Shown piece by piece: positions 1,432 through 26,621 of a DNA stretch of 54,015 bases. The notes beneath the pieces were generated by a model, which saw only the letters and a list, made by a program, of their open reading frames with translations, was not told where the DNA came from and ran no database searches. The stretch lies in sequence record DRR723986_9408. One strand, given 5' to 3'. The position numbers were made by a program, and so were the translations under genes. The stretch's first letter is position 1, and the number at the start of each line of letters is the position of its first letter.

Positions 1432-2064
1432 ATGAGTAGTCCGGTTAACTTATTTATTTCCAGAAGCCCAAAAACCGACCGAAAAACTCAATCTGACGAT
1501 AGAGCCTTGTGGCAAAGTGTCAGAAAGGGCAATGACCTCGCTTTTTCTAATCTCTATCAGAGGTTTTCTAACTTGCTTTTTAATTACGGCATGCATTTTT
1601 GCTATAACCGTGAGCTGGTTAAAGACTGTATCCAGGAGCTTTTTACAAACATCTGGAATAGGCGCGAAGGCCTTTCTGAGGTTGACTCTGTTAAATATTA
1701 CCTTTTTAAATCATTTCGAAATTTACTCATACAGCACATTACACGCGATCGAAAACTTTATTCAGACATGAATGAAGATTGCCAATTAAGTGAATGTGAA
1801 TCATCCGTCGAAGAAGAGTTGATTTCCCAAGATTATTTGAAGGATAATAAAAGCAAGGTTACTACTGCATTAACTAAAATCTCAAAAAGGCAGCGAGAAA
1901 TCATTGTTCTCAAATATTTCAATGACCTCAGTTATGCTGAAATATCCAGTATAATGTCTATCACGCCTGCTTCTGCCCATAATCTACTTTCAAAGGCCTT
2001 GCAATGCTTGAGAGTTGTGCTCAAAGCACTATTATTTGGCTCATACTTAAACTACCTAGCATAG
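1432..2064 (+). CDS. ECF-type RNA polymerase sigma-70 factor
   Basis: Region 2 (AFSNLYQRF...DCIQELFTNIW) and region 4 HTH (ISKRQREIIVLKYFNDLSYAEISSIM). Directly upstream of FecR and SusC. Confidence 0.92.
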   Translation: MSSPVNLFISRSPKTDRKTQSDDRALWQSVRKGNDLAFSNLYQRFSNLLFNYGMHFCYNRELVKDCIQELFTNIWNRREGLSEVDSVKYYLFKSFRNLLIQHITRDRKLYSDMNEDCQLSECESSVEEELISQDYLKDNKSKVTTALTKISKRQREIIVLKYFNDLSYAEISSIMSITPASAHNLLSKALQCLRVVLKALLFGSYLNYLA

Positions 2065-2152
2065 TTTTTTTTTGTTTTTGAATTTTTTTTATAAAAAATG
2101 ATGAGGTTTTATCACTTCTACACTCTTATAGGTATCAACCAAAAGAGACATA

Positions 2153-3172
2153 GTGAATCATCAGCTTTCAGATTACTCCAATTTTTCAGTAAATGACTTT
2201 GTCATAGACCCATTTTTTAAGGAATGGGTGCTTTATTCTGACCCTATACACGATGAGTTTTGGATGGATTGGAAGGATTCCAATCCATCCAAAACAGAGT
2301 TGATTGAGGAAGCGAGAAGGTTGGTTTTGAGTTTGGAGCATTCAAAGATTGAGATGAATCGAAGTGAAATGGTATTGGTGTGGGGCGCCATTCAAAGCGA
2401 GGTCAAACCGCCCCCAAAGTTTTCTAAGCCAACTCCAGACAGGAGCTCTTTCTGGCCTTTTGCCTATGCTGTTGCATCTTTTGCATTGGTCTTTCTAGCT
2501 TGGTATTGGTATGATTTGCCACAAGAAATCGAATACCAAACAGCATTTGGAGAGACGAAAGAATTCATACTTCCAGATAGTTCCAAGGTGATTTTGAATT
2601 CAAATTCCAAACTGACATTTAAAGACAATTGGGAAGGTCAGATGTCTAGAGATGTATGGATCGAGGGTGAGGCATTTTTTAACGTAGTCCACAAAAAAAA
2701 TCATCAGCCTTTTAAAGTTCTTAGTTCCCAAAACGTGGCTATAGAAGTCTTAGGGACAGAATTTAATGTATATAACCGATCTCAAGAGACGGAGGTAGTA
2801 TTGACCTCAGGAGCTGTAACGCTAAGTTTCCCTGTTAAGGATAAGGAAGGGAAAATCTTGATGAATCCGGGTGATTTGGTAGAGTTTAAACAGAGTAAGT
2901 TTCAACGTAAAAAAGTGAATACATCGCTCTATACCTCCTGGAAAGATAAGGTTCTAAACTTGGATGAAACCAGTTTAGGTGAAATCATCACCATGGCAAA
3001 AAATAACTATGGAATTGAGATTGAATTTGAAGATGAGGAAATACTGAAGCAAACAGCATCTGGCTCAATGCCACTAGGTAATGCTGCCAATTTCATGGAT
3101 CAAATTTCCAGAATCTTCAACATTGAAATAGTAAACGAGAAAAATAAGTACCTGATTAAAAACCCAAAATGA
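2153..3172 (+). CDS. FecR-family anti-sigma factor
   Basis: GTG start, single TM segment (FWPFAYAVASFALVFLAWYW), FecR motifs LPDSSKVILNSNS, EGEAFF and VLGTEFNV. Confidence 0.92.
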   Translation: MNHQLSDYSNFSVNDFVIDPFFKEWVLYSDPIHDEFWMDWKDSNPSKTELIEEARRLVLSLEHSKIEMNRSEMVLVWGAIQSEVKPPPKFSKPTPDRSSFWPFAYAVASFALVFLAWYWYDLPQEIEYQTAFGETKEFILPDSSKVILNSNSKLTFKDNWEGQMSRDVWIEGEAFFNVVHKKNHQPFKVLSSQNVAIEVLGTEFNVYNRSQETEVVLTSGAVTLSFPVKDKEGKILMNPGDLVEFKQSKFQRKKVNTSLYTSWKDKVLNLDETSLGEIITMAKNNYGIEIEFEDEEILKQTASGSMPLGNAANFMDQISRIFNIEIVNEKNKYLIKNPK

Positions 3173-3205
3173 AGTATTCCCCAAATAACCTGAAACCTGT
3201 TTACA

Positions 3206-6200
3206 ATGAGAAAGTTTGTACTATTATTATGTATGAGCTATTCGATTTCTTGGTTTGCATCAGCGCAAGTCGAGGATTTGATAGCTTCGGAAAAGAACCT
3301 AGATACCTTTTCGTCTAGGAGTGAAAACAGATACCTCAAAGAGGTACTGACACAGTTCGAGAATAAGTTTAAAGTCTCGATAGCGTATAAGGATGAGCTG
3401 GTTCAATCAAAAAGAATCAAATCGTCAAAATCTTCATTTAGTTCTGTAGAAGAGGGATTGAAAGTAATCCTGAGAGAAACAGGACTCAGCTATGAAAAAG
3501 CTGGTGAGAATTTTTATGTGATATTCCAAAGCAGATCAAGCCCAAGCGCTAAAGGAGAGGATTTGAAGAATATCCTCACATCAACCCAGTCACCCTCATC
3601 AGCAGGCAGAGGGTCCGATTTAAATTCAAGAATTTCAAGAAACTCCATTTCAGCAATCGAGCGACGGAGGATAGAAATTACCGGTAGAGTGACTGATGAA
3701 AATGGTATGGGTTTTCCCGGTGTTAATATTCTTCTTAAAGGAACCTCCACAGGTACCGTTTCTGGGAACAATGGAAACTATACCATTAATGTAGAAAGCG
3801 AAACATCTGTTCTAGTTTTTTCTTTTGTAGGATATCTCAATCAAGAAGAAGTGGTTGGCAATCGGTCTGTAGTCAACATCAGCATGCAAGTGGATGCTAG
3901 CGACTTGGAAGAAGTAGTAGTAACTGCCTTGGGAATCGAGAAATCAGCAAAAAGTCTTGGGTATGCTACCTCAACAGTTAAATCTGATGAGTTGACTATT
4001 AACAGAACTCCTAACGTTATGAACGCGCTACAAGGCAAAGTAGCGGGTGTAAGTATTTCAGCACTAGGCTCTGGTCCTGGAGGCACATCTAAAATCCGTA
4101 TTCGTGGTCAGTCCTCAATATCCGGACAAAATAATCCGCTGATTGTAGTAAATGGTGTCCCTATCGACAATACAAACTTCGGTTCAAATCCCGGGAATAA
4201 TGCTTCGGATAGTAGTATCGGCGTACGTGGAGGAGGTAACACTTCTGATGGAGGTGATGGATTGTCCAGTATTAACCCAGATGATGTGCAATCTATGACC
4301 ATCCTCAAAGGAGCTGCAGCTGCAGCCTTGTACGGTTCTCGAGCCAAAGACGGGGTAGTGATGATTACCACCAAAACAAAAAATGATAGTCGCGGCATGG
4401 GAGTTACTTATAACCTGAACTATACGAACGAAGCCCCGCTAGATTTCACTGACTACCAATATGAATATGGGCAAGGCGAGCAAGGTATTCGGCCTACTAC
4501 CCCAAACCCAACCTCTGGACAATGGTCATTCGGAGAGAAATTTGCTCCTGGCATGACCCAAATGCTTTTTGACGGAATTACAGTTCCTTATGAACCAGTA
4601 AAAGGCATTATCAATGATTTCTTTCGCAATGGTCAGAATGTGACTAATTCTATTACCCTCGCTACTTCTACCGAAAAGGGTGGTATGAGTTTGTCTTTTT
4701 CAGATCTGAATAGTAAGGGTATTGTGCCAAACAATGTTTACAATCGAAAGACTATCAATTTGGGCTTTGCTTATGATTTGAGCCCAAAGTTCAGTTTCCG
4801 GGGAAACTTTAATTATTCTCATGAAGAGAATGAAAATCCACCAAATATTGGTCAGCAGGATAATACGATTCCAGTAGCGCTTTACAATATGGCTAACTCC
4901 ATGCCACTGGATGTCCTTCGTGACAACCGGTATGATGCAAATGGAAACGAGGCAGTTTATTCCAGGTTTAGAAATCGTACCAATCCATATTTCACACTTT
5001 CTGATCAGTTTCAGAACATCCGCAGAGATAGGATATTCGGGAATATAGCAGTTAAATATCAATTTACTGACTGGTTATTTGTCCAAGGTAGAGTTGGTCA
5101 GGACTTCTGGACTAGAGACCAGGATTACAACAACTTTCCGACGGGACAAGCGTCGAGGGCACCAGCGCCAGCAGGATTCGTAAATGGAGTGTATACGCAA
5201 GAGCAAAGAAGATTCCGTGAGATAAATACAGACTTTTTAATCAATGCGAATAAGGAATTTGGCGACTTTGGAATCAATGCAAATATTGGAGGTAATCATA
5301 TGCAGAGAAGGTCAGACCTAAATAGTGTACAGGTCACTGACTTCGTGGTCAGAGACCTTTATACCGTTCAAAATGGTAGAGCTAAAGATCCAATATATGA
5401 TTTGAATGAGCGTGCAGTTAATTCATTGTATGGTTCTGCAGAAGTATCCTATAAGGATATGCTGTTCCTTACAGGTACTATTAGAAACGATTGGTTTTCA
5501 ACTCTTTCTAGAGAAAATAGGAGCATCCTTTATCCTTCTTTGTCAGCTAGCTGGGTATTCACTGAGAATTTTGCACAAAACAGCTGGTTGAATTTTGGAA
5601 AATTAAGAGTAGCATACGCTGAAGTGGGTAGTGATGCTGACGTAGGAGCGTATTCCAATGTGCTATTTTATGGCATAAACAACAACTTGTTTGGAGGTCA
5701 GCCAGTAGGAGGGCCTAACGGAACCAATCTTCCAAATCCAAATTTGAGACCAATGCGAATTGGTGAAGCAGAAGTTGGATTTGAGCTGAGAATGTTTCAA
5801 GGCAAAGTGAGTTTGGATATGGCAGCTTATAGAAAACTCACTACTGATCAGATTGTAAGCGCTCAGATTTCAGACGCTTCTGGTTTTGTCAATACTTCTA
5901 TTAACAGTGGTCAAAGTGAAAATAAGGGGATTGAAATGCTCTTAACGATTGTCCCTATTGAGAACAAGAATTTCACTTGGGAATTTTCAGCAAACTCAGC
6001 CTACAATAAAACAAAAGTTCTAAGCCTACTGACTGATAATCCCGGTGAACGGATTACTGTCGGAACCCACGTATTCAATGGTGAATTGAGACAAATCGTT
6101 GGAATGGAAATGGGACAGGTTGCAGGATTTGGCTACAGAAGGGATGATCAGGGGAGAAAAATCTTTGGAGCAAATGGTCTTCCACTCAGAACCACTGATC

Positions 6201-6745
6201 TAGTTAATTTCGGAAGTGCGCTACCAAATTGGGTTGGAGGATTTAATAACTCACTCAATTATAAAGGAGTAATGCTTTCTTTCTTGATTGACTACAAGTT
6301 GGGCAATATTATGCTTTCGGGTACGAATTTTAACGCTACCAGACATGGTTTACATAAGATGACATTGGAAGGAAGAGAAGGTGGGGTCGTAGGAGTTGGT
6401 GTGAACGAAGCTGGTGAGATAAACACCGCAGTAGCTCCAGTGCAGTCCTACTGGGAAGTGGTTAGATCACAAGCTTTAGTAGAGCCCATAATCTACGATG
6501 GAGGATATGTCAAACTTCGGCAAATCACTTTAGGGTATGATTTCACCAAACATTTACCTGAAAACCAACCATTCAAATCAGTGAAGCTGAATTTCGTAGC
6601 AAACAACGTATTCATGATAAAGAAATGGGTTGATAATATTGATCCAGAATCATTCGGGTATTCTTCTGATAATTTGGTTGGTATGGAGTCCACTGGTCTT
6701 CCTTCTACCAGAGGTTTAGGTTTCAATCTTAACGTCAAATTCTAA
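3206..6745 (+). CDS. SusC/RagA TonB-dependent transporter with N-terminal STN signalling domain
   Basis: Signal peptide, STN-like segment (LKEVLTQFENKFKVSIAY...LRETGLSYE), carboxypeptidase-regulatory-like domain, SusC plug signature LKGAAAAALYGSRAKDGVVMITTK, C-terminal Phe. Confidence 0.95.
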   Translation: MRKFVLLLCMSYSISWFASAQVEDLIASEKNLDTFSSRSENRYLKEVLTQFENKFKVSIAYKDELVQSKRIKSSKSSFSSVEEGLKVILRETGLSYEKAGENFYVIFQSRSSPSAKGEDLKNILTSTQSPSSAGRGSDLNSRISRNSISAIERRRIEITGRVTDENGMGFPGVNILLKGTSTGTVSGNNGNYTINVESETSVLVFSFVGYLNQEEVVGNRSVVNISMQVDASDLEEVVVTALGIEKSAKSLGYATSTVKSDELTINRTPNVMNALQGKVAGVSISALGSGPGGTSKIRIRGQSSISGQNNPLIVVNGVPIDNTNFGSNPGNNASDSSIGVRGGGNTSDGGDGLSSINPDDVQSMTILKGAAAAALYGSRAKDGVVMITTKTKNDSRGMGVTYNLNYTNEAPLDFTDYQYEYGQGEQGIRPTTPNPTSGQWSFGEKFAPGMTQMLFDGITVPYEPVKGIINDFFRNGQNVTNSITLATSTEKGGMSLSFSDLNSKGIVPNNVYNRKTINLGFAYDLSPKFSFRGNFNYSHEENENPPNIGQQDNTIPVALYNMANSMPLDVLRDNRYDANGNEAVYSRFRNRTNPYFTLSDQFQNIRRDRIFGNIAVKYQFTDWLFVQGRVGQDFWTRDQDYNNFPTGQASRAPAPAGFVNGVYTQEQRRFREINTDFLINANKEFGDFGINANIGGNHMQRRSDLNSVQVTDFVVRDLYTVQNGRAKDPIYDLNERAVNSLYGSAEVSYKDMLFLTGTIRNDWFSTLSRENRSILYPSLSASWVFTENFAQNSWLNFGKLRVAYAEVGSDADVGAYSNVLFYGINNNLFGGQPVGGPNGTNLPNPNLRPMRIGEAEVGFELRMFQGKVSLDMAAYRKLTTDQIVSAQISDASGFVNTSINSGQSENKGIEMLLTIVPIENKNFTWEFSANSAYNKTKVLSLLTDNPGERITVGTHVFNGELRQIVGMEMGQVAGFGYRRDDQGRKIFGANGLPLRTTDLVNFGSALPNWVGGFNNSLNYKGVMLSFLIDYKLGNIMLSGTNFNATRHGLHKMTLEGREGGVVGVGVNEAGEINTAVAPVQSYWEVVRSQALVEPIIYDGGYVKLRQITLGYDFTKHLPENQPFKSVKLNFVANNVFMIKKWVDNIDPESFGYSSDNLVGMESTGLPSTRGLGFNLNVKF

Positions 6746-6756
6746 GTTTTATACAC

Positions 6757-8274
6757 ATGAAAAAGATCTTAAATTATATATTCTTAGCGTCCATTCTGAT
6801 GTATGCATCAGCATGTGACAATAACTTCGACGAGCTCAATACTAATAAAGTCAGTGCCACAGCTATTGACCCTGCGTTTCAACTGAATGCAGCCATAGTA
6901 GGCTGTGCCTATCCCAATGGTACCTTGGTTTATGACATAGGCATTGTTCAGCAGATAATTTCGCCAAATTCAGGTGTCCTTACAGGAGCCAATTATAACC
7001 AGGATAATAGAAACTCAACTCAGGAACTTTGGCAGCGATACTATCGGGATGTGATTAAGAATACCAAGGATGTGATAAGTCAAGTTCAAGATGATCCGAG
7101 CAGAGCTAACCTGCTTAATATGACACGGATTCTTCAGGCATTTGCATTTATGGTTTTGACGGATGACTATGGAAGTATCCCGTATTTCGAAGGCGGAGTA
7201 GGCTATTCTCAACAGGTGTTTTTTCCAAAATATGATTCCCAAGAAGTCATTTATGAGGACATAATCAAAGAATTGACTGAGGCTACTGCAGCGTTGAATC
7301 TATCCGGAAAAATTGAAAGTGCAGATATTCTGTATGGGGGCGATTTGAATAAATGGAAAAGCTTTGGCAACTCGATATTGTTGAGAGCTGGAATGAGGCT
7401 GAGTGCAGTGAATGCAACGAAGGCACAACAGGTAGTTCAGGCAGCATTTCAAGGTGGAGTGATTCTTTCAAATGTTAATAATGCAAAAATTGCCCATGAT
7501 GCTAACTATTTGAATACGATAGGAAACTTACTTAATTCCACAGAGGCGTCTAATTTTTATTTAACTGCTCCATTTGTGGATTATTTGCGAAGTAAAAATG
7601 ACCCTCGTCTATCTGCAATAGCAATCACCTATGTAGATGCTAAATCAGGTCCTGAGCAAACAGTAGCCTCAGGGACATATGAAGCTAGTGTGCACGTGGG
7701 AATGCCAATGGGAAATGACAATGCGGGAGCTGTAAAAGCAGCTGCGGATTTAGGATTGACCAGCTTTTATGAATTTGCGCAAGCAGATAGAAGAAGACTT
7801 GCGAAAAATACAGCACCAACTTTCTTGGTTACAGCTTCCCAAAACTACCTCCTGTTAGCTGAGGCTAGACAGAGGGGGTGGATCAGCTCAGGAGACGTTG
7901 AAACGTATTATAACGCAGGAGTAAGAGCTCACATGGAGCAGTTGGGCACGGTAGATGCCGCCTCTTCAATACCACTAGCAGCTGTAGATGCCTATTTGTC
8001 AGCAAATCCACTTGATGCTTCAAAAGCAATAGAAATGATCAATACTCAATATTGGGTATCATCCTTTATGAATGGACCAGAGGCATTTGCCAATTTCCGA
8101 AGATCTGGATTCCCTATGCTCACCACCAATCCATTCCCTGGAAAAGAAGTTGATTTTATTAATAGAATTACTTATCCGAATTCTGAGATATCAGTAAACT
8201 CTGAAAACGTGCAAGCGGCCATTTCAGCTAGTGGGGCTGATAATCTCGCAACGAAAGTTTGGTGGGATAAATAA
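6757..8274 (+). CDS. SusD/RagB-family surface lipoprotein
   Basis: Lipoprotein Cys20 (ASAC), motifs LTDDYGSIPY, EAFANFRRSGFP and C-terminal KVWWDK. Starts 11 nt after susC. Confidence 0.93.
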   Translation: MKKILNYIFLASILMYASACDNNFDELNTNKVSATAIDPAFQLNAAIVGCAYPNGTLVYDIGIVQQIISPNSGVLTGANYNQDNRNSTQELWQRYYRDVIKNTKDVISQVQDDPSRANLLNMTRILQAFAFMVLTDDYGSIPYFEGGVGYSQQVFFPKYDSQEVIYEDIIKELTEATAALNLSGKIESADILYGGDLNKWKSFGNSILLRAGMRLSAVNATKAQQVVQAAFQGGVILSNVNNAKIAHDANYLNTIGNLLNSTEASNFYLTAPFVDYLRSKNDPRLSAIAITYVDAKSGPEQTVASGTYEASVHVGMPMGNDNAGAVKAAADLGLTSFYEFAQADRRRLAKNTAPTFLVTASQNYLLLAEARQRGWISSGDVETYYNAGVRAHMEQLGTVDAASSIPLAAVDAYLSANPLDASKAIEMINTQYWVSSFMNGPEAFANFRRSGFPMLTTNPFPGKEVDFINRITYPNSEISVNSENVQAAISASGADNLATKVWWDK

Positions 8275-8280
8275 GAATAG

Positions 8281-8309
8281 AACCGAGTTTGGAAAATCCA
8301 AACTCGGTT
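8281..8309 (+). terminator. 13-bp stem-loop after susD (terminator or mRNA-stabilising hairpin)
   Basis: AACCGAGTTTGGA-AAA-TCCAAACTCGGTT is a perfect inverted repeat with only a weak T-rich tail. Confidence 0.65.
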
Positions 8310-8335
8310 TAATTTGATTTTAGTTATATTCCAAA

Positions 8336-9268
8336 ATGTACAAAACCTATATAACCCTATTGTTTCTATTCTTTTTTGGAATAGATTCTTTTGCGCAACA
8401 GATTTCCAAAGAGGAAATGCTCTTTCTTACCCAAGAATGGAAAGGAGAAAGATTTGAAGATGGTCGCCCTAAAGTGTCCGATGACCTATTGAGGCGTATG
8501 AAAATCGTGACCCATGATGAAGCCTGGGCCGTGATGAAAAATGCAGGCTACAAATATCAATATGCTGAAGGCTGGGAAATGATCAACCCGGATAGCATTA
8601 TGGTCGGAAGAGCACTTACGGCTACTTTTATGCCGGGTAGACCTGATATCCACGGAGCGATAGATGCCCGCGGAAAAGCCGAAGGAAAGAAAGGACAGAA
8701 TGTTTGGCCGGTGGATTTACTGGTAAAAGGGGATGTCTATGTCGCCGACCAATTCGGAATCCACGATGGGGGACCTACCATTGGCGATAATGTTGGAAAT
8801 GCGATTTTTGCCAATTCAGGCAATGGAATCGTTTACAATGGTGCGATCAGAGACATCGCCGGTCTGAAGGAAATCGGTGGTTTTACCTCCTATTACCGAA
8901 GCTATCACCCATCACACCATAATCAACCTAGAGATTTGAATACCATGCTGATCGGTATCAATAAACCTACAAAAATCGGCCAAGCTACAGTGATGGCAGG
9001 TGATGTAGTATTGGGACGTGACGGTGCAGTGTCATTTATTCCTGCCCATTTAGTAGAGCAGGTGGTAGTTACTTCAGAAGTAGTAAGGTTGAGAGATATG
9101 TTTGGCCATGAGCGAATCCGGGAGGGAAAATACACAGCTGGTGATATAGATACTAGATGGTCTGATGACATAGAAAAAGACTTTTCCCAGTGGCTCGAAT
9201 CCCATATCGATGAATTACCAATAGCTCGAGAACAAATCCAAGAAATTCTAAAAAACAGAACTTGGTAA
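8336..9268 (+). CDS. RraA/HMG-aldolase-like protein with Sec signal peptide (paralog 1)
   Basis: N-terminal MYKTYITLLFLFFFGIDSFAQ signal. Contains GDN-...-GAIRD with exact D-X20-R-D spacing and a GDVVLG motif. Confidence 0.85.
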   Translation: MYKTYITLLFLFFFGIDSFAQQISKEEMLFLTQEWKGERFEDGRPKVSDDLLRRMKIVTHDEAWAVMKNAGYKYQYAEGWEMINPDSIMVGRALTATFMPGRPDIHGAIDARGKAEGKKGQNVWPVDLLVKGDVYVADQFGIHDGGPTIGDNVGNAIFANSGNGIVYNGAIRDIAGLKEIGGFTSYYRSYHPSHHNQPRDLNTMLIGINKPTKIGQATVMAGDVVLGRDGAVSFIPAHLVEQVVVTSEVVRLRDMFGHERIREGKYTAGDIDTRWSDDIEKDFSQWLESHIDELPIAREQIQEILKNRTW

Positions 9269-9292
9269 TTATACATACAACCCTTAAAACCT

Positions 9293-10567
9293 ATGAAATC
9301 TAAGAATTCAAGAAGATCATTTTTACAAAAAAGTGCTGTTGCTGGTTTGACAGGAGCTGGCTTAATGGGCGGCTTTGGCGGCTTAAATGAAGCTGTAGCA
9401 AGGCAAAACCCCCACTCAAATCCCTCAGATCTGAAAATAACAGATGTAAAATGCGGCTATGTACGTGGGGCAGTTTATGTAAAAATATATACTAATCAGG
9501 ATGTTTGGGGCTGTGGAGAAGCAGTTGATGCGATTCAAGGCACGTATTACATGATCCAGAGGATGGGTAATCAGCTAAAAGGGCAAAATCCATTAAATCC
9601 CAATCGTCTGGCAGAACAAATCCGTAAGGGAGCATTTTTTGGTGGTGCTCAGTCTGGAGTTTTTGTTGCCGTTCTCACAGCCATTGAGACTGCACTTTGG
9701 GATATCACTGGAAAAGTTTTTAACGTTCCCGTTTACCAATTATTGGGAGGCAAATTCAGAGATAAAATCCGGGTCTATTGTGATACAGCCCTATATACAT
9801 CCACAAATCCTACTCCAAATGATTATGCTTTAGCGGCAAGAAATGCAGTGTCCAAAGGTTATAATGCGGTGAAATTTGATGTGGATGATGCAAGAGATCC
9901 AAATAAATATGATCGTTTTAACTGGACTGCAAGCCCCGCTGAAATAGAGAGAATGTACAATGCCATCGCCGCAGTGCGGGAAGAAGTGGGCCCCAACATT
10001 GATATCTGTGTGGATATGCACGGACGATATGATGCAATCACTGGGATGAAGATGGCCAAAGCCTACGAGCCGTTAAACCTGATGTTTCTGGAGGAACCAA
10101 TTCCAGCGGATAATCCAGAAATGTATAAGCACATCACCCAAGAAACAAGTACGCCCATCTGTGCCGGTGAAAATATCTACTTAGCCTACGGTTTTACAAA
10201 ACTACTTTCTGATGGTGCTTTAAATATCATTATGCCTGATCTGCAAAAAGCGGGTGGACTGGGAGAAGCCCAACGAATAGCAAACTTGGCAAATCTTTAT
10301 TACGTGCCTTTTTCTCCTCACATGGTTGCCTCTTTTCTAGGAGCGATGGCGAGTTGTCATGTCTGCGCTTCCGTACCCAACTTTCAGATTATGGAATGGC
10401 AAATCTATATGGATACAGATGACTTATGGAAAGACATAGTTACCTATGACGGTCCTAGAACAGAAAATAGCTTTATCACACTATCCGAAAAACCTGGAAT
10501 AGGTGTGGAAATCAATGAGGAAGGTATGAGAAAACATGCCGTTCCTGGAATCCCATTCTTCGAATAA
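9293..10567 (+). CDS. Mandelate racemase/muconate lactonizing (enolase superfamily) enzyme, galactonate-dehydratase-like, with Tat signal (paralog 1)
   Basis: SRRSFLQK twin-arginine motif, ALWDITGK...PVYQLLGG signature, KFD, metal ligands in VDMH/FLEEP/AGEN, and a His in SPHM. Confidence 0.88.
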   Translation: MKSKNSRRSFLQKSAVAGLTGAGLMGGFGGLNEAVARQNPHSNPSDLKITDVKCGYVRGAVYVKIYTNQDVWGCGEAVDAIQGTYYMIQRMGNQLKGQNPLNPNRLAEQIRKGAFFGGAQSGVFVAVLTAIETALWDITGKVFNVPVYQLLGGKFRDKIRVYCDTALYTSTNPTPNDYALAARNAVSKGYNAVKFDVDDARDPNKYDRFNWTASPAEIERMYNAIAAVREEVGPNIDICVDMHGRYDAITGMKMAKAYEPLNLMFLEEPIPADNPEMYKHITQETSTPICAGENIYLAYGFTKLLSDGALNIIMPDLQKAGGLGEAQRIANLANLYYVPFSPHMVASFLGAMASCHVCASVPNFQIMEWQIYMDTDDLWKDIVTYDGPRTENSFITLSEKPGIGVEINEEGMRKHAVPGIPFFE

Positions 10568-10577
10568 TCAGCAATTA

Positions 10578-10614
10578 GGTTTTTTCTTCACGCTTATCAA
10601 GTGAAGAAAAAACC
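10578..10614. terminator. 14-bp intergenic stem-loop between the two enzyme modules
   Basis: GGTTTTTTCTTCAC-N9-GTGAAGAAAAAACC is a perfect inverted repeat with no downstream U-tract on +. Confidence 0.5.
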
Positions 10615-10629
10615 CTAACCCCTATACCA

Positions 10630-11604
10630 ATGAACCCGATTTCAACACCCCAAAGAAAGATCAGGATGTCCATCTTGATTGGCGCTTTTTCATGCTTCTT
10701 ATTATTGCCAAAAATAGAAGCACAAGCCCAAAACGTTGGCGCTTCCCCTGAATACATCAAAGCCCTTACTGTCGATTGGCAGGGAGAACGCTTTGCAGAT
10801 GGGAGACCGAAAGTTTCTGATTCTATTTTAGAACGCCTGAAAAAAATCTCCATTGAAGAGGCATGGGGCGTTCTGCGCAATAAGGGCTACCAAAACCAAT
10901 ATGAAGGTGAGTGGCAAATCATGCTGCCAGATGAAACCATGACAGGCCGGGTGGTGACAGCTCAATACATGCCACTACGTCCTGATCTCGAAAAGCAGGT
11001 GAAGGACCAAGGCGTAGGTAAAGAAGGAAGATCTGATAAAGGAGGTACAAACTCCTGGCCTATCGATATTCTTACCAACGGAGATGTCTATGTAGCAGAT
11101 GGCTATGGGAAAATCGTGGATGGAACGCTGATCGGAGATAATCTCGGAAATGCGATCTATGCCAAATCCCAACGTGGAGTGATCTTCAATGGATCTGTGA
11201 GGGATCAGGAAGGACTATCCGAGATCGAAGGCTTCAATGCCTGGATGAAAGGGCAAGATCCATCTTATATTCAGCAAATGATGCTGACCTCTATCAATGC
11301 ACCAATTCGAGTTGGACGTGCTACTGTACTTCCAGGTGATGTGGTCTTAGCAAAGAAATATGGGGTGATTTTCATTCCAGCATACTTAGTGGAAGAGCTT
11401 GTTTTGACTTCTGAGGTCACTGGATTGCGAGATGAATTTGGCCACCAAAGATTGCGAGAAGGTAAATATCTAGCTGGACAGATTGATAGCCAGTGGACAG
11501 AAGAGATCAAAAAGGATTTCTTGGATTGGCTAAACAATTATCCAGGAAAGCTTCCGATGACCAAGACTGAGCTGGATAATTACCTTAAAGAACGTAATTA
11601 CTAA
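10630..11604 (+). CDS. RraA/HMG-aldolase-like protein with Sec signal peptide (paralog 2)
   Basis: Basic n-region plus hydrophobic ILIGAFSCFLLL...AQAQ. GDN-...-GSVRD has exact D-X20-R-D spacing. Clear homology to 8336..9268. Confidence 0.85.
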   Translation: MNPISTPQRKIRMSILIGAFSCFLLLPKIEAQAQNVGASPEYIKALTVDWQGERFADGRPKVSDSILERLKKISIEEAWGVLRNKGYQNQYEGEWQIMLPDETMTGRVVTAQYMPLRPDLEKQVKDQGVGKEGRSDKGGTNSWPIDILTNGDVYVADGYGKIVDGTLIGDNLGNAIYAKSQRGVIFNGSVRDQEGLSEIEGFNAWMKGQDPSYIQQMMLTSINAPIRVGRATVLPGDVVLAKKYGVIFIPAYLVEELVLTSEVTGLRDEFGHQRLREGKYLAGQIDSQWTEEIKKDFLDWLNNYPGKLPMTKTELDNYLKERNY

Positions 11605-11657
11605 TTCTGGATCAGGCTAAAGACAAATTACACAATAACCCAAAAACCCTATTTAAG

Positions 11658-13142
11658 ATGAAAAGCACATTACAACACCTTATTCAAAAGAGTAAGGAGC
11701 AGGAGCGGACTTATACAGCCCAACGTCAAGCAGAAATCGATAATCCCTTTACAAAAGATAACAGAAGAGATTTCTTGAAAAAAACTGCCTTAGGCGGGTT
11801 AAGTTTGACAGCACTCATGGGACTTAGTATAGAAGATACCATGGCTGAAACGACTAAGAATGTACGTCGGGCGTCAGCTCCTTCAGACTTGAAAATCACG
11901 GATCTCCGCTATGCTCATACCAATGTAATGGGGGGAACCGCAATCCTTAGAATCGATACAAACCAAGGGATTTATGGTTTGGGTGAGGTAAGGGATGGGG
12001 CTGATCCTAGGTATGCATTGATGCTGAAAAGTAGGATTCTAGGCGAAAACCCCTGCAACGTTGAAAAACTGTTTAAAATCATCAAACAATTCGGTGGGCA
12101 ATCCCGACAGGCTGGTGGTGTTTGTGGGGTTGAAATGGCACTCTGGGACCTATGTGGCAAAGCTTACAATGTACCGGCCTGGCAACTACTTGGCGGAAGG
12201 TATCGCGATTCTGTACGTCTGTACGCTGATACTCCGGAAGCCAAATCTCCTGAAGAGCAGCTGAAGCTCATCAAATACCGAACTGAGGAGCAGGGGTATA
12301 CTTGGCTGAAAATGGATGTTTCTATTGGAGAAATCATGGATATCCCGGGTTGTATTGTGAATCCAGAGATTTTCAAAATGGGTAAAAGTCAGTGGCAGGG
12401 CGGATACATGTCTTATGCCAACACAGCCCATCCATTTACGGGAGTACAGATCACTGAGAAGGGACTGGATGAGCTCGCCAAAATCGTAGATCATGTGCGT
12501 AGTATGGTGGGTTATGATATTCCTATTTCGACGGACCATTATGGCCATTTTGATTTGAATAACTGCATCAGGCTGGGGCAGGCACTCGATAAATATAGAT
12601 TGGCTTGGTTAGAAGATATGGTGCCGTGGCAGATGTGGCAGCAGCATAAGACAATCACAGATTCTCTGAATACTCCTACCACCACAGGCGAGGATATTTA
12701 TTTATTGGAATATTTCAAAGACCTGATAGATAATCATGCCGTGGACATTGTGCATCCTGATTTGGCATCCTCGGGTGGACTTTTGGAAACCAAAAGAATT
12801 GCAGATTATGCAGAAGAAAAGGGGATAGGGATGGCCATGCATCAGGCTGGCACTCCTGTTTCATTTATGGCAAATGTACATTGCGCGGCAGCTACGCAAA
12901 ATTTTCTGGCACTGGAACATCACTCAGTGGATGTGCCTTGGTGGGAGGATTTGGTTACTATGACCGGCGGAGGCAAAATGATAGACAAAGGTTATGCGCC
13001 GGTACCTTTGGAGGCACCGGGCTTAGGAATTGAGCTGAATGAAGAAGTAGTAAAGGCACATTTACATCCATCGGACAGCTCATTTTTTGCACCTACGGAT
13101 ATGTGGAATGAAAAGCGTTCGCACGATAGAATCTATAGTTAA
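11658..13142 (+). CDS. Mandelate racemase/muconate lactonizing (enolase superfamily) enzyme with Tat-like signal (paralog 2)
   Basis: NRRDFLKK at residues 35-42, ALWDLCGK...PAWQLLGG, KMD, metal-ligand positions TDHY/WLEDM/TGED, and a His in AMHQ. Confidence 0.86.
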   Translation: MKSTLQHLIQKSKEQERTYTAQRQAEIDNPFTKDNRRDFLKKTALGGLSLTALMGLSIEDTMAETTKNVRRASAPSDLKITDLRYAHTNVMGGTAILRIDTNQGIYGLGEVRDGADPRYALMLKSRILGENPCNVEKLFKIIKQFGGQSRQAGGVCGVEMALWDLCGKAYNVPAWQLLGGRYRDSVRLYADTPEAKSPEEQLKLIKYRTEEQGYTWLKMDVSIGEIMDIPGCIVNPEIFKMGKSQWQGGYMSYANTAHPFTGVQITEKGLDELAKIVDHVRSMVGYDIPISTDHYGHFDLNNCIRLGQALDKYRLAWLEDMVPWQMWQQHKTITDSLNTPTTTGEDIYLLEYFKDLIDNHAVDIVHPDLASSGGLLETKRIADYAEEKGIGMAMHQAGTPVSFMANVHCAAATQNFLALEHHSVDVPWWEDLVTMTGGGKMIDKGYAPVPLEAPGLGIELNEEVVKAHLHPSDSSFFAPTDMWNEKRSHDRIYS

Positions 13143-13168
13143 GAACACCTTTTTACTTATTGCCAAAA

Positions 13169-13209
13169 GACCCGAAGACTTGCTTTATAACTGGTTTTCG
13201 GGTCATTTT
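13169..13209 (+). terminator. Stem-loop after the second enolase gene
   Basis: GACCCGAAGAC...GTTTTCGGGTC (one G-U pair) followed by ATTTT. Confidence 0.5.
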
Positions 13210-13239
13210 CAAAAAGCTCTCACCTAAAAATATTTTATT

Positions 13240-14334
13240 TTGAACCCAAAAATCACCAAAGCTCTTTCTATTCTCAGCGGCTTATTATTGTTAGCAGCAA
13301 TCGCTATCACGCTCTTTACGGGCATTGCAAAGGCAGGCTTCCTATGGATTGGCTTTTTCTTTATCTGTGCGATAGCATTTTTAGGTATTCCCAAACTTCG
13401 TGGATACGCCTACTCCATGATGATCTTCGGATCGGTTGCAATTGCCCTGTATTTTCCACAATACTTCATCGAATACAAAGGTTATAAGTTCAGTGCATCG
13501 ATTGTCCCGCTGATTCAGATAATTATGTTTGGAATGGGGACTTCCATGAGCATCAAAGACTTTTTGGGTGTGGTCAAAATGCCCAAAGGAGTGCTGATTG
13601 GCGTTCTATGCCAATTTTCAATTATGCCTTTCATAGGCTATACGCTAGCAAAAACAAGTGGTTTTCCTCCTGAAATAGCTGCCGGGATGATTTTAATCGG
13701 TTGTTCTCCAAGTGGTATGGCTTCGAATGTGATGGCATTCCTTGCCAGAGCTAATCTCGCACTATCAATTACTGTTACTTCGGTTACGACTTTATTAGCT
13801 CCTTTCGTTACCCCGTTTTTGATGGGCTGGTTAGCTGGCGAATTTGTAGCAATCGATGTTGTCGAAATGATGTTCAGCATTGTGAAAATGGTCATTATCC
13901 CAATTGGAGCAGGACTACTCTTTAATTATTTCCTTCGTGGAAAAGCCAAGTGGCTGGATGATCTTATGCCAATAATTTCTATGGCTGCCATAGCGTTGAT
14001 TTTGGTGGTGATTGTAGCTGCGGGAAGAGACAGTTTGCTGGATATTGGACCTCTTTTAATAATCCTTGTTGTGGTTCATAATCTCTTCGGATATGTGCTT
14101 GGCTATTGGGCGAGTAGATTGTTTAGACTCAGCGAAAAAGATTGTAGAACCATTGCAATAGAAGTGGGAATGCAAAATGGAGGTCTTGCCTCTGGTATAG
14201 CAAAGGAAATGGGAAAGATCGCCACAGTTGGTCTTGCACCCGCGGTATTTGGGCCTTTTATGAATGTGAGTGGTTCTATACTAGCTTCTTATTGGCATAA
14301 AAAGCCGATAGAACCTGAGGAAGAAAATTCTTGA
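13240..14334 (+). CDS. Bile acid:sodium symporter (BASS/SBF) family transporter
   Basis: TTG start. Motifs IMFGMG, CSPSGMASNV and RTIAIEVGMQNGGLA. Extra N-terminal hydrophobic segments. Confidence 0.9.
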   Translation: MNPKITKALSILSGLLLLAAIAITLFTGIAKAGFLWIGFFFICAIAFLGIPKLRGYAYSMMIFGSVAIALYFPQYFIEYKGYKFSASIVPLIQIIMFGMGTSMSIKDFLGVVKMPKGVLIGVLCQFSIMPFIGYTLAKTSGFPPEIAAGMILIGCSPSGMASNVMAFLARANLALSITVTSVTTLLAPFVTPFLMGWLAGEFVAIDVVEMMFSIVKMVIIPIGAGLLFNYFLRGKAKWLDDLMPIISMAAIALILVVIVAAGRDSLLDIGPLLIILVVVHNLFGYVLGYWASRLFRLSEKDCRTIAIEVGMQNGGLASGIAKEMGKIATVGLAPAVFGPFMNVSGSILASYWHKKPIEPEEENS

Positions 14335-14338
14335 TGAT

Positions 14339-14758
14339 TTAAGGCAATTTATATGCCTGTCGGACCAGTAATTTCCACTGGCCCTTTTCTTTCTGCCAAA
14401 CTAGAATAACGCCGATTTTTATGGAGTTTGATTTTCCTCCGTCTAAGACATCAGCTACTAAATTATGGCGAACTATCGCTACGTCTTTTTCTACGTGTAT
14501 AGTTTGGTCTTCAAAGGAAACCTTGGCAAAATCAGAAGCTCCACTTACTAAAGCATCTATAAACTGAGCTTGGTTTTCGAGTTTGCCGCTAGAGTGACCG
14601 TAGCTTAAATGAATGGAACTTAGCTCGCTCAGATTAGCTACCGTAGGATCAATCAAGGCTAATCGTAGTTTTTCTACTTGAGATGCTACGTCCTTATCAG
14701 CTTGCGCAAAAGCTAAAGTTACTGTGAGAAAAAGGGCAAAGGTTAATAGGGTTTTCAT
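14339..14758 (-). CDS. Secreted NTF2-like / DUF4440 protein
   Basis: Signal peptide (…LAFAQ), LSYGHSSG motif and C-terminal VWQKEKGQWKLLVRQA strand typical of the NTF2 fold. Confidence 0.8.
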   Translation of the reverse strand: MKTLLTFALFLTVTLAFAQADKDVASQVEKLRLALIDPTVANLSELSSIHLSYGHSSGKLENQAQFIDALVSGASDFAKVSFEDQTIHVEKDVAIVRHNLVADVLDGGKSNSIKIGVILVWQKEKGQWKLLVRQAYKLP

Positions 14759-16890: not shown

Positions 16891-17042
16891 GGGATTATTC
16901 CTTTGCTTAAAGAATAGGAATAAACAAGGTTTTCAATATGCTAGTGCAAGCGTTAATAACAAATGAATCCCTTTTCGCTAACATTTACCCCCCTTCGTAG
17001 AGTACAGGATTGAATAGTTTTGGAAGGATGAAACTAAACCCT

Positions 17043-18452
17043 ATGAATAACCCATTTAAGTTTTTGGCAAGACTGTTCGTTCTTTCACTTATACTTTTCT
17101 CCTGCGGGGAGAAAGAAGACCCCGTCACTTTTCTAGTATCTATCACTGAGCTCCAATTTGGGCCGGCTGAAGAAACTTTGGAGGTTACTTTGACAAGTAA
17201 TCAACAATGGCAAGTGGAGATGAATGCATCATGGATTACCGTGATCCCAAACCAGGGCAACGGAAATGCTAAAATTTCCATAACAACAGCAGCAAACTAT
17301 GCGAATGAAATACGAACGACGGTCCTAAATATAAGGTCTGGAGTCATCATCCAGCCAATTAAAATAACACAGGAGGCAGGTGAACCTCAATTTCCTGATT
17401 ATTACATCCCGGCAGATAATACAGGCATGCGTGAAATTTCCAGTTTGGAATTGGCAGCTGAAATGGGAAAAGGATGGAATTTGGGTAATTCCCTCGAAGC
17501 AATAGGAGGGGAAACAGCGTGGGGAAATCCAAAAGTGACTAAAGAATTAATAGATGCTGTAAAAGCAGCTGGCTTTAATTCTGTAAGAATTCCAGTGGCT
17601 TGGAGTAAATTTTCAAATGCTACGGAATTTACAATTGATCCGGAATGGATGGCTAGAGTGCAGGAAGTGGTCGATTATGTGATAGATAATGACATGTACG
17701 CCTTGATGAATATCCACTGGGACGAAGGCTGGATGCAGCCGACTTTTGCGGAGCAGGAGTATGTGAATAATCGCTTGGAGAAAATGTGGGTTCAGATTGC
17801 GCTGAATTTCAGAGATTATAACGATCACTTATTATTTGCAGGCACCAATGAGGTGATGATAGAAGGGGATTATGGTACTCCAAAACCTGAATATTATCAA
17901 GTGCAAAATTCCTTCAATCAGACTTTTGTGAATGCCGTACGATCCACTGGCGGTAGAAATGCTTACAGAAATTTAGTCGTTCAGACGTTCAATACGAACA
18001 TTGACCATGGGGTGAATTTCTTTGAATTGCCACTAGATGAAACTGAGGATCGTTTGATGGTCGAAGCACATTATTACGACCCGTATGAGTTTGCCTTGAG
18101 AGAGGATGAAATCATCACCCAATGGGGAGCCAACGCCACTGACCCTTCAAAAACCGCACCTTGGGGTGGTGAGGCACATGTCGACGCACAGTTTCAAAAG
18201 ATGAAAATCAAATTCATCGACCAAGGCATTCCTGTTTTGATAGGAGAATATGGGGCTATCCAGAAGAAAGCTGCGGAGAATTACAGCTTTCTGATTGATT
18301 ATCATAGCTACGTGACTAAAAGTATGACAGCCCATGGATTGGTGCCCTTCTATTGGGATAATGGATATGCTGGCGATTATGGGTTTGCACTATTTGACCG
18401 GAATAGCAGAGAGCAGATTTATCCTGATTTGATAAAAGCTATAACAAACTAG
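17043..18452 (+). CDS. Glycoside hydrolase family 5 lipoprotein with N-terminal BACON domain
   Basis: Lipobox LFSC, BACON-like segment (W...WITV.P..GNG...N....R...ITQEAG), GH5 motifs GWNLGNSLE, RIPVAW, NIHWD, GTNE (acid/base) and IGEYG (nucleophile). Start could be 17028 or 17043. Confidence 0.9.
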   Translation: MNNPFKFLARLFVLSLILFSCGEKEDPVTFLVSITELQFGPAEETLEVTLTSNQQWQVEMNASWITVIPNQGNGNAKISITTAANYANEIRTTVLNIRSGVIIQPIKITQEAGEPQFPDYYIPADNTGMREISSLELAAEMGKGWNLGNSLEAIGGETAWGNPKVTKELIDAVKAAGFNSVRIPVAWSKFSNATEFTIDPEWMARVQEVVDYVIDNDMYALMNIHWDEGWMQPTFAEQEYVNNRLEKMWVQIALNFRDYNDHLLFAGTNEVMIEGDYGTPKPEYYQVQNSFNQTFVNAVRSTGGRNAYRNLVVQTFNTNIDHGVNFFELPLDETEDRLMVEAHYYDPYEFALREDEIITQWGANATDPSKTAPWGGEAHVDAQFQKMKIKFIDQGIPVLIGEYGAIQKKAAENYSFLIDYHSYVTKSMTAHGLVPFYWDNGYAGDYGFALFDRNSREQIYPDLIKAITN

Positions 18453-26618: not shown

Positions 26619-26621
26619 GTT

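Follow-up and report, generated by a model that had tools for sequence, protein, structure and literature searches.

A SusC/SusD-linked cassette of exported enolase-superfamily and RraA-like enzymes, predicted to act on sugar acids in the periplasm of Bacteroidota

Gene Content and Organisation of the Locus

A stretch of DNA of 54,015 nucleotides (sequence record DRR723986_9408, here called the window) carries at nt 1432–14334 a cassette of nine co-directional genes on the + strand (Table 1) which, judging from its sequence, probably serves to break down an acidic sugar, or a compound bearing a sugar acid, in the periplasm. In order, the genes specify an extracytoplasmic function (ECF) sigma factor, a FecR-type anti-sigma factor, a SusC/SusD pair, two RraA-like proteins (RraA1 and RraA2) that alternate with two enolase-superfamily enzymes (Eno1 and Eno2), and a symporter of the BASS family. 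The gaps between them are short (88, 33, 11, 61, 24, 62, 53 and 97 bases, in gene order). RraA1 and RraA2 are a paralogous pair (48% identity), as are Eno1 and Eno2 (32–38% identity over two aligned pieces). The source of the window is an Algoriphagus close to A. yeomjeoni, as proteins identical or 98–99% identical to a window RraA-like protein are labelled with the latter name, and the nearest genome examined (G001) has a single locus with these families.

The gene order and coordinates are those given in an earlier note made from the sequence alone. That note had also described the left part of the cassette as an ECF sigma–FecR–STN–SusC–SusD series, and of this the sigma factor, FecR, SusC and SusD are clear, while the STN domain of SusC is borderline (PF07660, 28.2 bits against a gathering cut-off of 28.4; E = 1.6e-6), with the sigma and FecR genes adjoining. 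The spacing of 11 bases makes susC and susD an adjacent pair, as expected of a SusC/SusD locus. A siderophore-type reading of the sigma, FecR and STN components was set aside because the transporter is of the SusC/SusD type and all of the neighbouring families point to sugar-acid chemistry. The claim that the cassette is free of carbohydrate-active enzymes (CAZymes) also stands: a domain scan of nt 1432–14334 returned no glycoside hydrolase (GH), polysaccharide lyase (PL) or carbohydrate esterase (CE) family, so that the linked CAZyme by which a polysaccharide utilisation locus (PUL) is recognised is lacking. The closest CAZyme gene (BACON-GH5, nt 17010–18452) lies past three genes of the opposite strand.

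Table 1. Features annotated at the left end of the window, with the evidence for each assignment.
Feature	Position (nt)	Strand	Evidence
ECF-type sigma-70 factor	1432–2064	+	Sigma70_r2, r4 and r4_2; TIGR02937 85.7 bits (cut-off 42.9)
FecR-type anti-sigma factor	2153–3172	+	FecR and FecR_C domains
SusC/RagA-type TonB-dependent transporter with N-terminal STN-like extension	3206–6745	+	TIGR04056 631 bits (cut-off 368); Plug, CarboxypepD_reg
SusD-like outer-membrane lipoprotein	6757–8274	+	SusD-like_2 263 bits; lipoprotein-type leader with terminal Cys
14-bp stem-loop with T-rich tail at the susD/RraA1 junction	8280–8310	+	Terminator-like; minimum free energy −22.1 kcal/mol, z = −6.6
RraA-like protein 1 (RraA1), Sec-type leader, predicted 2-keto-3-deoxy-acid lyase	8336–9268	+	RraA-like Pfam domain
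Enolase-superfamily enzyme 1 (Eno1), acid-sugar-dehydratase-like, Tat leader	9293–10567	+	MR_MLE_N and MR_MLE_C
RraA-like protein 2 (RraA2), Sec-type leader	10630–11604	+	RraA-like Pfam domain
Enolase-superfamily enzyme 2 (Eno2), Tat leader	11658–13142	+	MR_MLE domains
Sodium-coupled carboxylate symporter of the BASS family, predicted to import the pathway product across the inner membrane	13240–14334	+	SBF PF01758 137.9 bits
Exported DUF4440 (SnoaL/NTF2-like) protein, convergent with BASS	14339–14758	−	DUF4440 Pfam domain; Sec-type leader

Predicted Export of the Enzymes

All four enzymes carry predicted export signals, as had been proposed, two of the Sec type and two of the twin-arginine translocation (Tat) type. 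The N-termini of RraA1 and RraA2 consist of a short basic stretch, a hydrophobic core and an A-x-A end directly ahead of the conserved domain; these Sec leaders were judged by our own hydrophobicity rule together with conservation, and not by a dedicated signal-peptide predictor. Eno1 and Eno2 have an RR-x-F-L motif followed by a hydrophobic stretch, and when their isolated N-termini were compared with the Tat profile TIGR01409 they scored 23.1 and 21.1 bits, respectively, both above the cut-off of 16.7.

The conservation of these signals in homologues was assessed in 80 loci (of roughly 290 or more) that were fetched with an alignment of nine RraA-like sequences, the nine window proteins then being used as phmmer queries against all of their open reading frames (ORFs). 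The claim that the signals are conserved was borne out for both enzyme types. Of the 68 related enolase ORFs, 60 have the RR motif and hydrophobic stretch, and conservation of RR-x-F over 59 Tat-enolases is 97% or more. Among the eight ORFs without a Tat motif, six are low-scoring distant paralogues from loci outside the Bacteroidota, and the other two come from a single locus (L034), one being a distant paralogue with a single Arg and the other an over-extended ORF. For the RraA-like proteins, a signal-like hydrophobic segment precedes the domain in 83/96 ORFs. Twelve of the 13 exceptions belong to non-Bacteroidota loci and their sequences begin at the domain (seven from Poribacteria, Latescibacterota, Gemmatimonadota or Chloroflexota, one from Spirochaetales, and the rest from unclassified bacteria), while in the thirteenth (L038) a signal-like stretch is present but falls below our threshold. 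Similarly, among the full-length RraA-like representatives listed (50% identity clusters), 28 of 38 have a hydrophobic N-terminal segment and 10 begin at the domain. Export is, by these predictions, a stable property of the Bacteroidota forms of both enzyme types, and a signal-less, putatively cytoplasmic form occurs elsewhere.

Two further features of the N-termini were noted. In Eno2-type enolases the twin-arginine motif is preceded by a charged and conserved segment some 35 residues long (nt 11658–11765 in the window), which is also conserved in the orthologues of L016, L018, L022, L024, L041, L081, L092 and L093; such an n-region is unusually long and conserved for a Tat leader. The signal-less RraA-like proteins (L053, L055, L056, L058, L059, L062, L063, L066, L073, L077, L086 and L094) are 51–57% identical to RraA1, and their hosts (Poribacteria, Latescibacterota, Gemmatimonadota, Chloroflexota, Spirochaetota and unclassified bacteria) all lie outside the Bacteroidota. 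In the tree described below, eleven signal-less rows group with L061 in a single 12-member clade, which falls within the group that is sister to the exported RraA1 clade. Three of these RraA-like genes (L062, L077 and L094) have an enolase within 1.5 kb that is signal-less or unclear, and genes for a PhyH dioxygenase and an ATP-binding cassette (ABC) transporter recur nearby.

Enzyme and Transporter Families

Both enolases contain the MR_MLE capping and barrel domains (C-domain E = 4.6e-59 for Eno1 and 3.9e-45 for Eno2). The K-x-D motif, the D/E/E carboxylates (D241, E267 and E293 in Eno1) and D316/H343 are kept in both subfamilies, and the last five of these residues are at least 97% conserved over the 59 Tat-enolases; we take D241, E267 and E293 to be metal ligands and D316/H343 to be the acid–base pair, in keeping with their roles in the superfamily. 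The best curated matches were to galactonate, gluconate/galactonate and mannonate dehydratases, all of them below the respective cut-off. The top match was the galactonate dehydratase model NF010624, at 247.8 bits for Eno1 and 168.2 bits for Eno2 (cut-off 311). A structure that was also matched, 5olc (E = 1e-36), has the table label galactonate dehydratase, but is presumably a 3,6-anhydro-D-galactonate cycloisomerase.

The RraA-like family is very large, comprising more than 7,000 clusters (90% identity) at E 1e-5 among just the 8,000 candidates scored, and 1,665 representatives at E 0.001 in a library clustered at 50% identity. PF03737 is present in both RraA1 and RraA2. Members of the family share the N-terminal motif W-x-G-E-R-x-x-D-G-R-P, which is invariant, and are extended at the C-terminus by a helical segment, which in the RraA1 model corresponds to helices at 216–285. 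This AlphaFold model, of the mature protein, has a predicted local distance difference test (pLDDT) score of 92.8 and shows the alpha-beta-beta-alpha fold of RraA and the aldolase, and its best Foldseek matches were 3k4i, 5ir2, 3noj, 5x15 and 2c5q (E 6e-16 to 1e-11), among them yeast YER010Cp. By sequence, the closest solved structure is 5x15, an RNase inhibitor of the RraA family.

Of the conserved residues, R172 and D173 are invariant in the nine-sequence alignment and both are nearly invariant among 102 sequences; D173 is likewise nearly invariant (at least 90%) among 22 RraA-like sequences. A profile alignment to 3noj, the HMG/CHA aldolase (HMG, 4-hydroxy-4-methyl-2-oxoglutarate; CHA, 4-carboxy-4-hydroxy-2-oxoadipate), places the GD motif of the family on D102, for which we assume a role in that enzyme, and the RD motif on R123-D124. 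The aldolase requires Arg-123 and uses Asp-124 as a metal ligand (PMC5065237). The 3noj alignment stops at Glu-199, a metal ligand from the second subunit, opposite a residue that is not acidic, and two conserved acidic residues of RraA1 (E248 and D254) are found a few positions away.

Fusion proteins were also seen among the RraA-like representatives. P0123 (532 aa, a metagenomic representative) joins a signal peptide, a 3-keto-disaccharide-hydrolase domain (PF06439) and an RraA-like domain, and other single representatives fuse the RraA-like part to an SMP-30 lactonase, a short-chain dehydrogenase/reductase (SDR), a GH2 barrel or a weak CE15-like match. As single metagenomic gene calls, some of them possibly chimeric, the fusions may be taken as weak hints of a sugar context only.

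The closest structure to the symporter is ASBT_NM (3zuy; E = 2e-66), and the cross-over helix motifs of the two proteins (G-x-A-S-N and E-V-G-M-Q-N) align, which places it in the BASS family. The PanS model gave 237.7 bits (cut-off 400) and TIGR00841 gave 233.7 bits, also below its cut-off. Among the cargoes known for the family are pantoate, pyruvate, glycolate and 2-keto acids; the pantoate binders have Thr112/Asn265, and plant proteins that carry pyruvate, glycolate and 2-keto acids have Gln/Ser at these sites (PMC10645422). The window protein has Met112/Asn265 and so matches neither pair.

Conservation of the Cassette

Co-occurrence was counted over the 80 loci, the values being lower bounds as many contigs are cut. 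An enolase gene is adjacent to the RraA-like gene in 42/80 loci, a BASS gene lies within 4.5 kb of it in 36/80, and SusC or SusD within 6 kb in 29/80. Enolase and SusC/SusD genes occur together in 24/80, and enolase, BASS and SusC/SusD genes in 14/80. The full order (FecR/sigma, SusC, SusD, RraA1, Eno1 ... RraA2, Eno2, BASS) was found in L016, L024, L027, L031, L032, L041 and L081, L041 being a variant in which the last two genes have changed places and a BASS gene was not seen. A short form, with only the RraA1–Eno1 pair after SusD, is present in L034 and L035 (Balneolota). FecR homologues occupy the equivalent position in L016, L024, L027, L031, L032, L034 and L041. The SusC orthologues that flank the cassette in other loci show 44–77% identity to the window protein. 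For SusD the values are 67% in A. jejuensis, 54–61% in loci of Chitinophagaceae, Spirosomataceae and Flavobacteriaceae, 41–42% in Balneolota, and 35–37% in the AraC-regulated, Chitinophagaceae-type loci. The linkage claimed for the window therefore extends well beyond it, the enzyme genes being co-conserved with orthologous susC/susD and BASS genes across families and in Balneolota.

The pairing of the enzymes was quantified on a tree of 102 RraA-like rows, built by maximum likelihood with a quick search and with SH-aLRT as the only measure of support. All 27 rows of the RraA1 clade (support 100) lie beside Eno1-type genes, 9/11 rows of the RraA2 clade (support 97) beside Eno2-type genes, and 10/11 rows of another clade (support 98) beside genes for DgaE-like proteins, which are described below. 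Labelling by nearest enolase mislabels three RraA2-type rows that are located between both enolase types. Partner labels require 15 changes on the tree, against a mean of 48.5 when shuffled and with none of 200 shuffles as low; in this comparison the rows, being related, are not independent of one another. The RraA1 clade cuts across taxonomy. This suggests that it spread laterally and that the cassette is horizontally shared among Bacteroidota.

A Sister Locus Type

In 16 of the 80 loci, mostly from Flavobacteriaceae, an exported, pyridoxal phosphate-dependent ammonia-lyase of the DgaE family stands in place of the enolase, together with an RraA-like protein and an orthologous BASS symporter (L043–L048, L050, L052, L054, L057, L065, L068, L069, L074, L080 and L087). 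The neighbouring genes specify an amidohydrolase (PRK09237, 432 bits; cut-off 371) and RidA, and often also a YjgF-like lipoprotein, a GSDH–cytochrome c protein, a lactonase, CBM9 and sulfatases. Export signals are found on all of these neighbours, with Tat motifs on RidA and the DgaE-like protein. The latter matches PDB 7lc0 at E = 1e-35, and DgaE is reported to convert a 2-amino-2-deoxy-aldonate to a 2-keto-3-deoxy acid (PMC9529869). Two unrelated makers of 2-keto-3-deoxy acids thus alternate beside the RraA-like family, which argues that the RraA-like protein consumes such an acid and is the strongest computational argument for this role. The BASS orthologues are mostly 55–68% identical in enolase-type and DgaE-type loci alike, pointing to a product common to both. 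The DgaE-type locus is itself a candidate for a complete periplasmic oxidative pathway for an amino sugar.

Proposed Pathway and Alternative Explanations

In the pathway proposed for the cassette, SusC/SusD, under the control of the ECF sigma and anti-sigma factors, would carry the substrate over the outer membrane. Two paralogous enzyme pairs would then act in the periplasm, the Tat-exported enolase dehydrating a 2-hydroxy acid to a 2-keto-3-deoxy acid, and the Sec-exported, metal-dependent lyase of RraA fold consuming the keto-deoxy acid, most likely by retro-aldol cleavage to pyruvate and an aldehyde. The BASS sodium symporter would import the small carboxylate product into the cytoplasm. 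The gene content, the export signals with their conservation, the kept catalytic residues and the co-conservation of the parts come directly from the sequences; we infer in which order the reactions run, what class of substrate is used, how the RraA-fold enzyme acts, what the symporter carries, and that there is co-regulation with susCD. A wider proposal, which we put forward tentatively, is that a whole ATP-independent, non-phosphorylative, oxidative sugar pathway may operate in the periplasm of many Bacteroidota. An aldose or amino sugar would be converted via a lactone and an aldonate to a 2-keto-3-deoxy acid, and this to pyruvate and an aldehyde; electrons from the first step would pass to cytochrome c, and only small carboxylates would enter the cell, via the dedicated BASS clade. 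The window cassette would represent the lower half of such a pathway, supplied by its own SusC/SusD. The wider proposal includes a bolder form, in which the dehydratase and RraA pair would act on acid-terminated oligosaccharides (oxidised chain ends), the chain being released by elimination without the need of a CAZyme.

Several results weigh against the proposed pathway. Neither Eno1 nor Eno2 reached the cut-off of any curated equivalog model, the closest structure to Eno1 (2qq6, E = 5e-95) has no assigned function, so that dehydration is no more than the most likely among several reactions of the superfamily, the others being epimerisation and cycloisomerisation. The LigK/PcmE model TIGR02798 gave 24 bits for RraA1 and 51.8 bits for RraA2, against a cut-off of 304.5. 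Position 112 is Leu, Val or Met and position 265 is Asn in all 37 BASS orthologues examined, and since Gln/Ser would be expected of a pyruvate carrier, the identification of the symporter as such was dropped; pyruvate is not favoured as its cargo by these predicted binding-site residues. The cassette is patchy in its distribution, being present in 5/301 sampled genomes of the class and in 1/4 of the genus. SusC/SusD genes are near in only 29/80 loci, so the enzyme module also works without an adjacent, dedicated SusC/SusD pair, and the strong hairpin between susD and the enzyme genes may divide the cassette into two transcription units. The last point to be counted here is FlDet, the only characterised long-form RraA-like enzyme from Bacteroidota, which is not an aldolase (PMC8563752).

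The hairpin and the many RraA–enolase–BASS modules without nearby SusC/SusD would both be explained if the enzyme module and SusC/SusD were merely neighbours, with the hairpin ending the transport operon and the exported enzymes acting, independently of TonB, on small acids that enter through porins. The Chitinophagaceae-type loci, with AraC regulation and divergent susCD, would also agree with this. We nevertheless consider it improbable. The SusC/SusD proteins that flank the cassette are orthologous across families, unlike what chance adjacency would give, and the order FecR/sigma–SusC–SusD–RraA–enolase recurs in nine loci (L016, L024, L027, L031, L032, L034, L035, L041 and L081). When the susD/RraA1 junction was checked in 12 orthologous loci, stem-loops of unrelated sequence were found to recur at the equivalent place: six have a structure with z ≤ −3.8 (L016, L024, L031, L041, L081 and L093) and in three (L034, L035 and L072) the spacer is longer and contains a stem of at least about 13 pairs, while no junction structure was found in the other three of the 12 (L017, L022 and L084). 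A hairpin that is conserved in position but not in sequence would fit a regulatory or mRNA-stabilising element within one system better than a boundary that arose by chance.

The chemistry of the RraA step has a more serious competitor. FlDet from Flavobacterium sp. UMI-01 is a cytoplasmic RraA-like protein of 237 residues that dehydrates and decarboxylates 2-keto-3-deoxy-hexarate to alpha-ketoglutarate semialdehyde and is inactive on 2-keto-3-deoxygluconate (KDG), its 6-phosphate (KDPG), 4-deoxy-L-erythro-5-hexoseulose uronate (DEHU) and 4-hydroxy-2-oxoglutarate (PMC8563752). The cassette could then encode a periplasmic aldarate route, in which the enolases, as dehydratases of the glucarate/galactarate type or as lactone cycloisomerases, would form a 5-keto-4-deoxy-aldarate, and the RraA-like proteins would convert it, as FlDet would, to alpha-ketoglutarate semialdehyde, for import by BASS and oxidation by a cytoplasmic aldehyde dehydrogenase. 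Only the chemistry of step two would differ from the pathway proposed above. We judge this route unlikely, but it has the attraction that an RraA-like protein with exactly the required activity is on record. An FlDet-like protein is encoded in a Cyclobacteriaceae genome (L096:1495–2202; NF006093, 344.5 bits, cut-off 208), where the gene adjoins a lyase-like gene and the protein has an N-terminus resembling the published one. By BLASTP it is 25% identical to RraA1 and 26% to RraA2 over most of its length, into the shared C-terminal helical extension. NF006093 is, furthermore, the best NCBIfam match of both RraA1 and RraA2, yet at 80.5 and 95.3 bits they score far below the cut-off; the GD of the window proteins and 3noj is GS in the L096 protein, which also lacks the N-terminal motif of the family. 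Cytoplasmic FAH-family, IlvD/EDD and aldehyde-dehydrogenase genes occur in the cassettes of L023, L026 and L034, and these fit Weimberg-type pathways, which converge on alpha-ketoglutarate semialdehyde. However, the enolases match galactonate, gluconate and mannonate dehydratases, with just 30.5 and 26.2 bits to the glucarate dehydratase model, and from the DgaE-type loci one would expect a keto-deoxy-aldonate as the product, a type of compound not accepted by FlDet, an objection that falls away if the substrate is an amino-uronic acid.

The DgaE-type loci and the best family matches of the enolases are more in keeping with aldonate-derived substrates and with aldol cleavage. We regard such cleavage as most likely, at slightly better than an even chance, and place FlDet-type chemistry behind it, well short of even. 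The dehydratase–aldolase succession put forward in the earlier note is supported by the DgaE-type loci in its sequential logic, whereas its assignment of the second enzyme as an aldolase faces a serious rival in FlDet. It is very improbable that the RraA-like proteins are non-enzymatic and regulate, inhibit or assist the assembly of the exported enolases (compare RraA and RNase E), or that the enolases epimerise or cycloisomerise their substrate and give no keto-deoxy product. Such a role would accord with the RNase inhibitor 5x15 being the closest structure by sequence, and a physical partnership could also account for the pairing of RraA clades with enolase clades; the enolase superfamily does include epimerases and cycloisomerases. 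A pure binder, however, would not need the Arg-Asp and GD motifs, which are invariant or nearly so in 102 members, and RraA-like genes are also found beside genes for DgaE-like lyases, or beside BASS alone without an enolase, so that the enolase is not an obligate partner.

Comparison with Known Systems

Textbooks treat enolase-superfamily dehydratases and RraA-fold lyases as enzymes of the cytoplasm, and SusC/SusD loci are currently interpreted almost entirely through their CAZymes. In the sugar-acid routes of E. coli, a dehydratase is followed by a pyruvate-releasing aldolase, as in DgoD/DgoA (D-galactonate), RhmD/RhmA (L-rhamnonate) and GudD/GarL (glucarate). The window cassette resembles DgoD/DgoA-type routes in the proposed use of an enolase-superfamily dehydratase to form a 2-keto-3-deoxy acid and of a lyase to consume it. 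Those routes, however, are cytoplasmic and lack export signals, SusC/SusD and BASS, and their aldolases have the KDPG-type or HpcH-type fold. Canonical PULs of Bacteroidota have SusC/SusD, with an N-terminal signalling extension on SusC and adjacent sigma and FecR genes; unlike these, the window unit has no glycoside hydrolase, lyase or esterase, and processing of the cargo would fall to enolase-superfamily and RraA-fold enzymes. Periplasmic oxidation of sugars by dehydrogenases linked to pyrroloquinoline quinone (PQQ) or cytochromes is well known, for example in Pseudomonas, where glucose is converted to gluconate and 2-ketogluconate. Related loci similarly add exported GSDH–cytochrome c, PQQ dehydrogenase and lactonase genes, but the known systems go no further than oxidation, whereas in the present proposal dehydration and the lyase reaction would be periplasmic as well.

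Among the individual enzymes, FlDet, which belongs to the oxidative DEHU pathway, is, like the window proteins, a long-form Bacteroidota RraA-like protein with the RD motif and the C-terminal helical extension, and it consumes a 2-keto-3-deoxy sugar acid; it differs in being cytoplasmic, in its length of 237 residues, in its membership of NF006093, and in dehydrating and decarboxylating its substrate without cleavage. LigK/GalC (3noj) shares the RraA fold and the aligned GD and Arg-Asp motifs, and is described as a class II pyruvate aldolase and oxaloacetate decarboxylase (PMC5065237). In contrast to this cytoplasmic enzyme of aromatic-compound degradation, RraA1, the model of which is about 16% identical to 3noj, has added N- and C-terminal segments. 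Salmonella DgaE/DgaF (PMC9529869; 7lc0) is the counterpart of the sister loci, which likewise hold a DgaE-family lyase, an amidohydrolase and a presumed consumer of the keto-deoxy acid. In Salmonella the enzymes work in the cytoplasm, on phosphorylated substrates, whereas in the sister loci the DgaE-like protein and RidA have Tat leaders and an RraA-like protein replaces the aldolase.

A full-text literature search, with subscription journals and supplements outside its scope, returned no description of exported RraA-like or enolase enzymes or of a locus of this type; within that reach, the view that the pathway is not already characterised holds. What is classical is the succession of a dehydratase and a lyase acting on a keto-deoxy acid, and periplasmic sugar oxidation is also known. 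The new elements are the predicted export of both enzyme types, an RraA-fold protein at the second step, a dedicated BASS clade, and linkage to an orthologous SusC/SusD pair free of CAZymes. If the proposal is correct, many Bacteroidota of soil and marine habitats would have relocated part of central sugar-acid catabolism to the periplasm, and a class of nutrient-uptake loci would have been overlooked by CAZyme-based prediction of PULs. It would also provide a function for the very large, uncharacterised RraA-like family and allow two distinct clades, one of Tat-exported enolases and one of BASS proteins, to be assigned, and it would explain the use of oxidised sugars (aldonic, aldaric and amino-sugar acids) released by oxidative breakdown of polysaccharides.

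Variant Loci and Neighbouring Genes

Several loci carry additional genes in or near the cassette. A sulfatase gene adjoins the SusC/SusD genes in three of those with the full order: it lies between susD and the enzyme genes within nt 6793–9925 of L027 and nt 6808–9844 of L032, and upstream of FecR within nt 1752–3422 of L024. In L027 and L032 the sulfatase is followed by an extra Tat-exported enolase, of which the L027 copy scores as ManD-type (396 bits). Sulfatases in 12 loci hint at a sulfated substrate. The Chitinophagaceae-type loci (L025, L026, L028, L033, L036, L039, L084 and L023) have an AraC regulator and a cytoplasmic FGGY kinase in place of the sigma and FecR genes. The best match of the kinase is gluconokinase (398 bits; cut-off 649), and its gene directly adjoins BASS–RraA1–Eno1, which suggests that the imported product is phosphorylated. 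Tat-exported, UxuA-like or xylose-isomerase-like TIM-barrel proteins flank RraA-like genes in L095 (nt 6623–12068, three copies) and L040 (nt 6451–7611), and would be a third kind of exported, dehydratase-like partner.

The DUF4440 gene that converges on the BASS gene (Table 1) has counterparts with leaders inside the cassette in L019, L022, L074 and L081, and its product may be an accessory component. Further to the right, the window carries a sulfatase gene (nt 20099–21853) and a second exported pair (nt 24066–27722), in which a haem-binding cytochrome c protein of DUF7133/PVC type (TIGR02604, 198.6 bits; cut-off 122), bearing a lipoprotein-like leader, precedes a TIM-barrel protein that resembles xylose isomerase and has a Tat leader (TIGR01409, 20.1 bits; cut-off 16.7). 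An SDR gene comes next (nt 27791–28573). This pair may represent a further periplasmic module for the oxidation or isomerisation of sugars.

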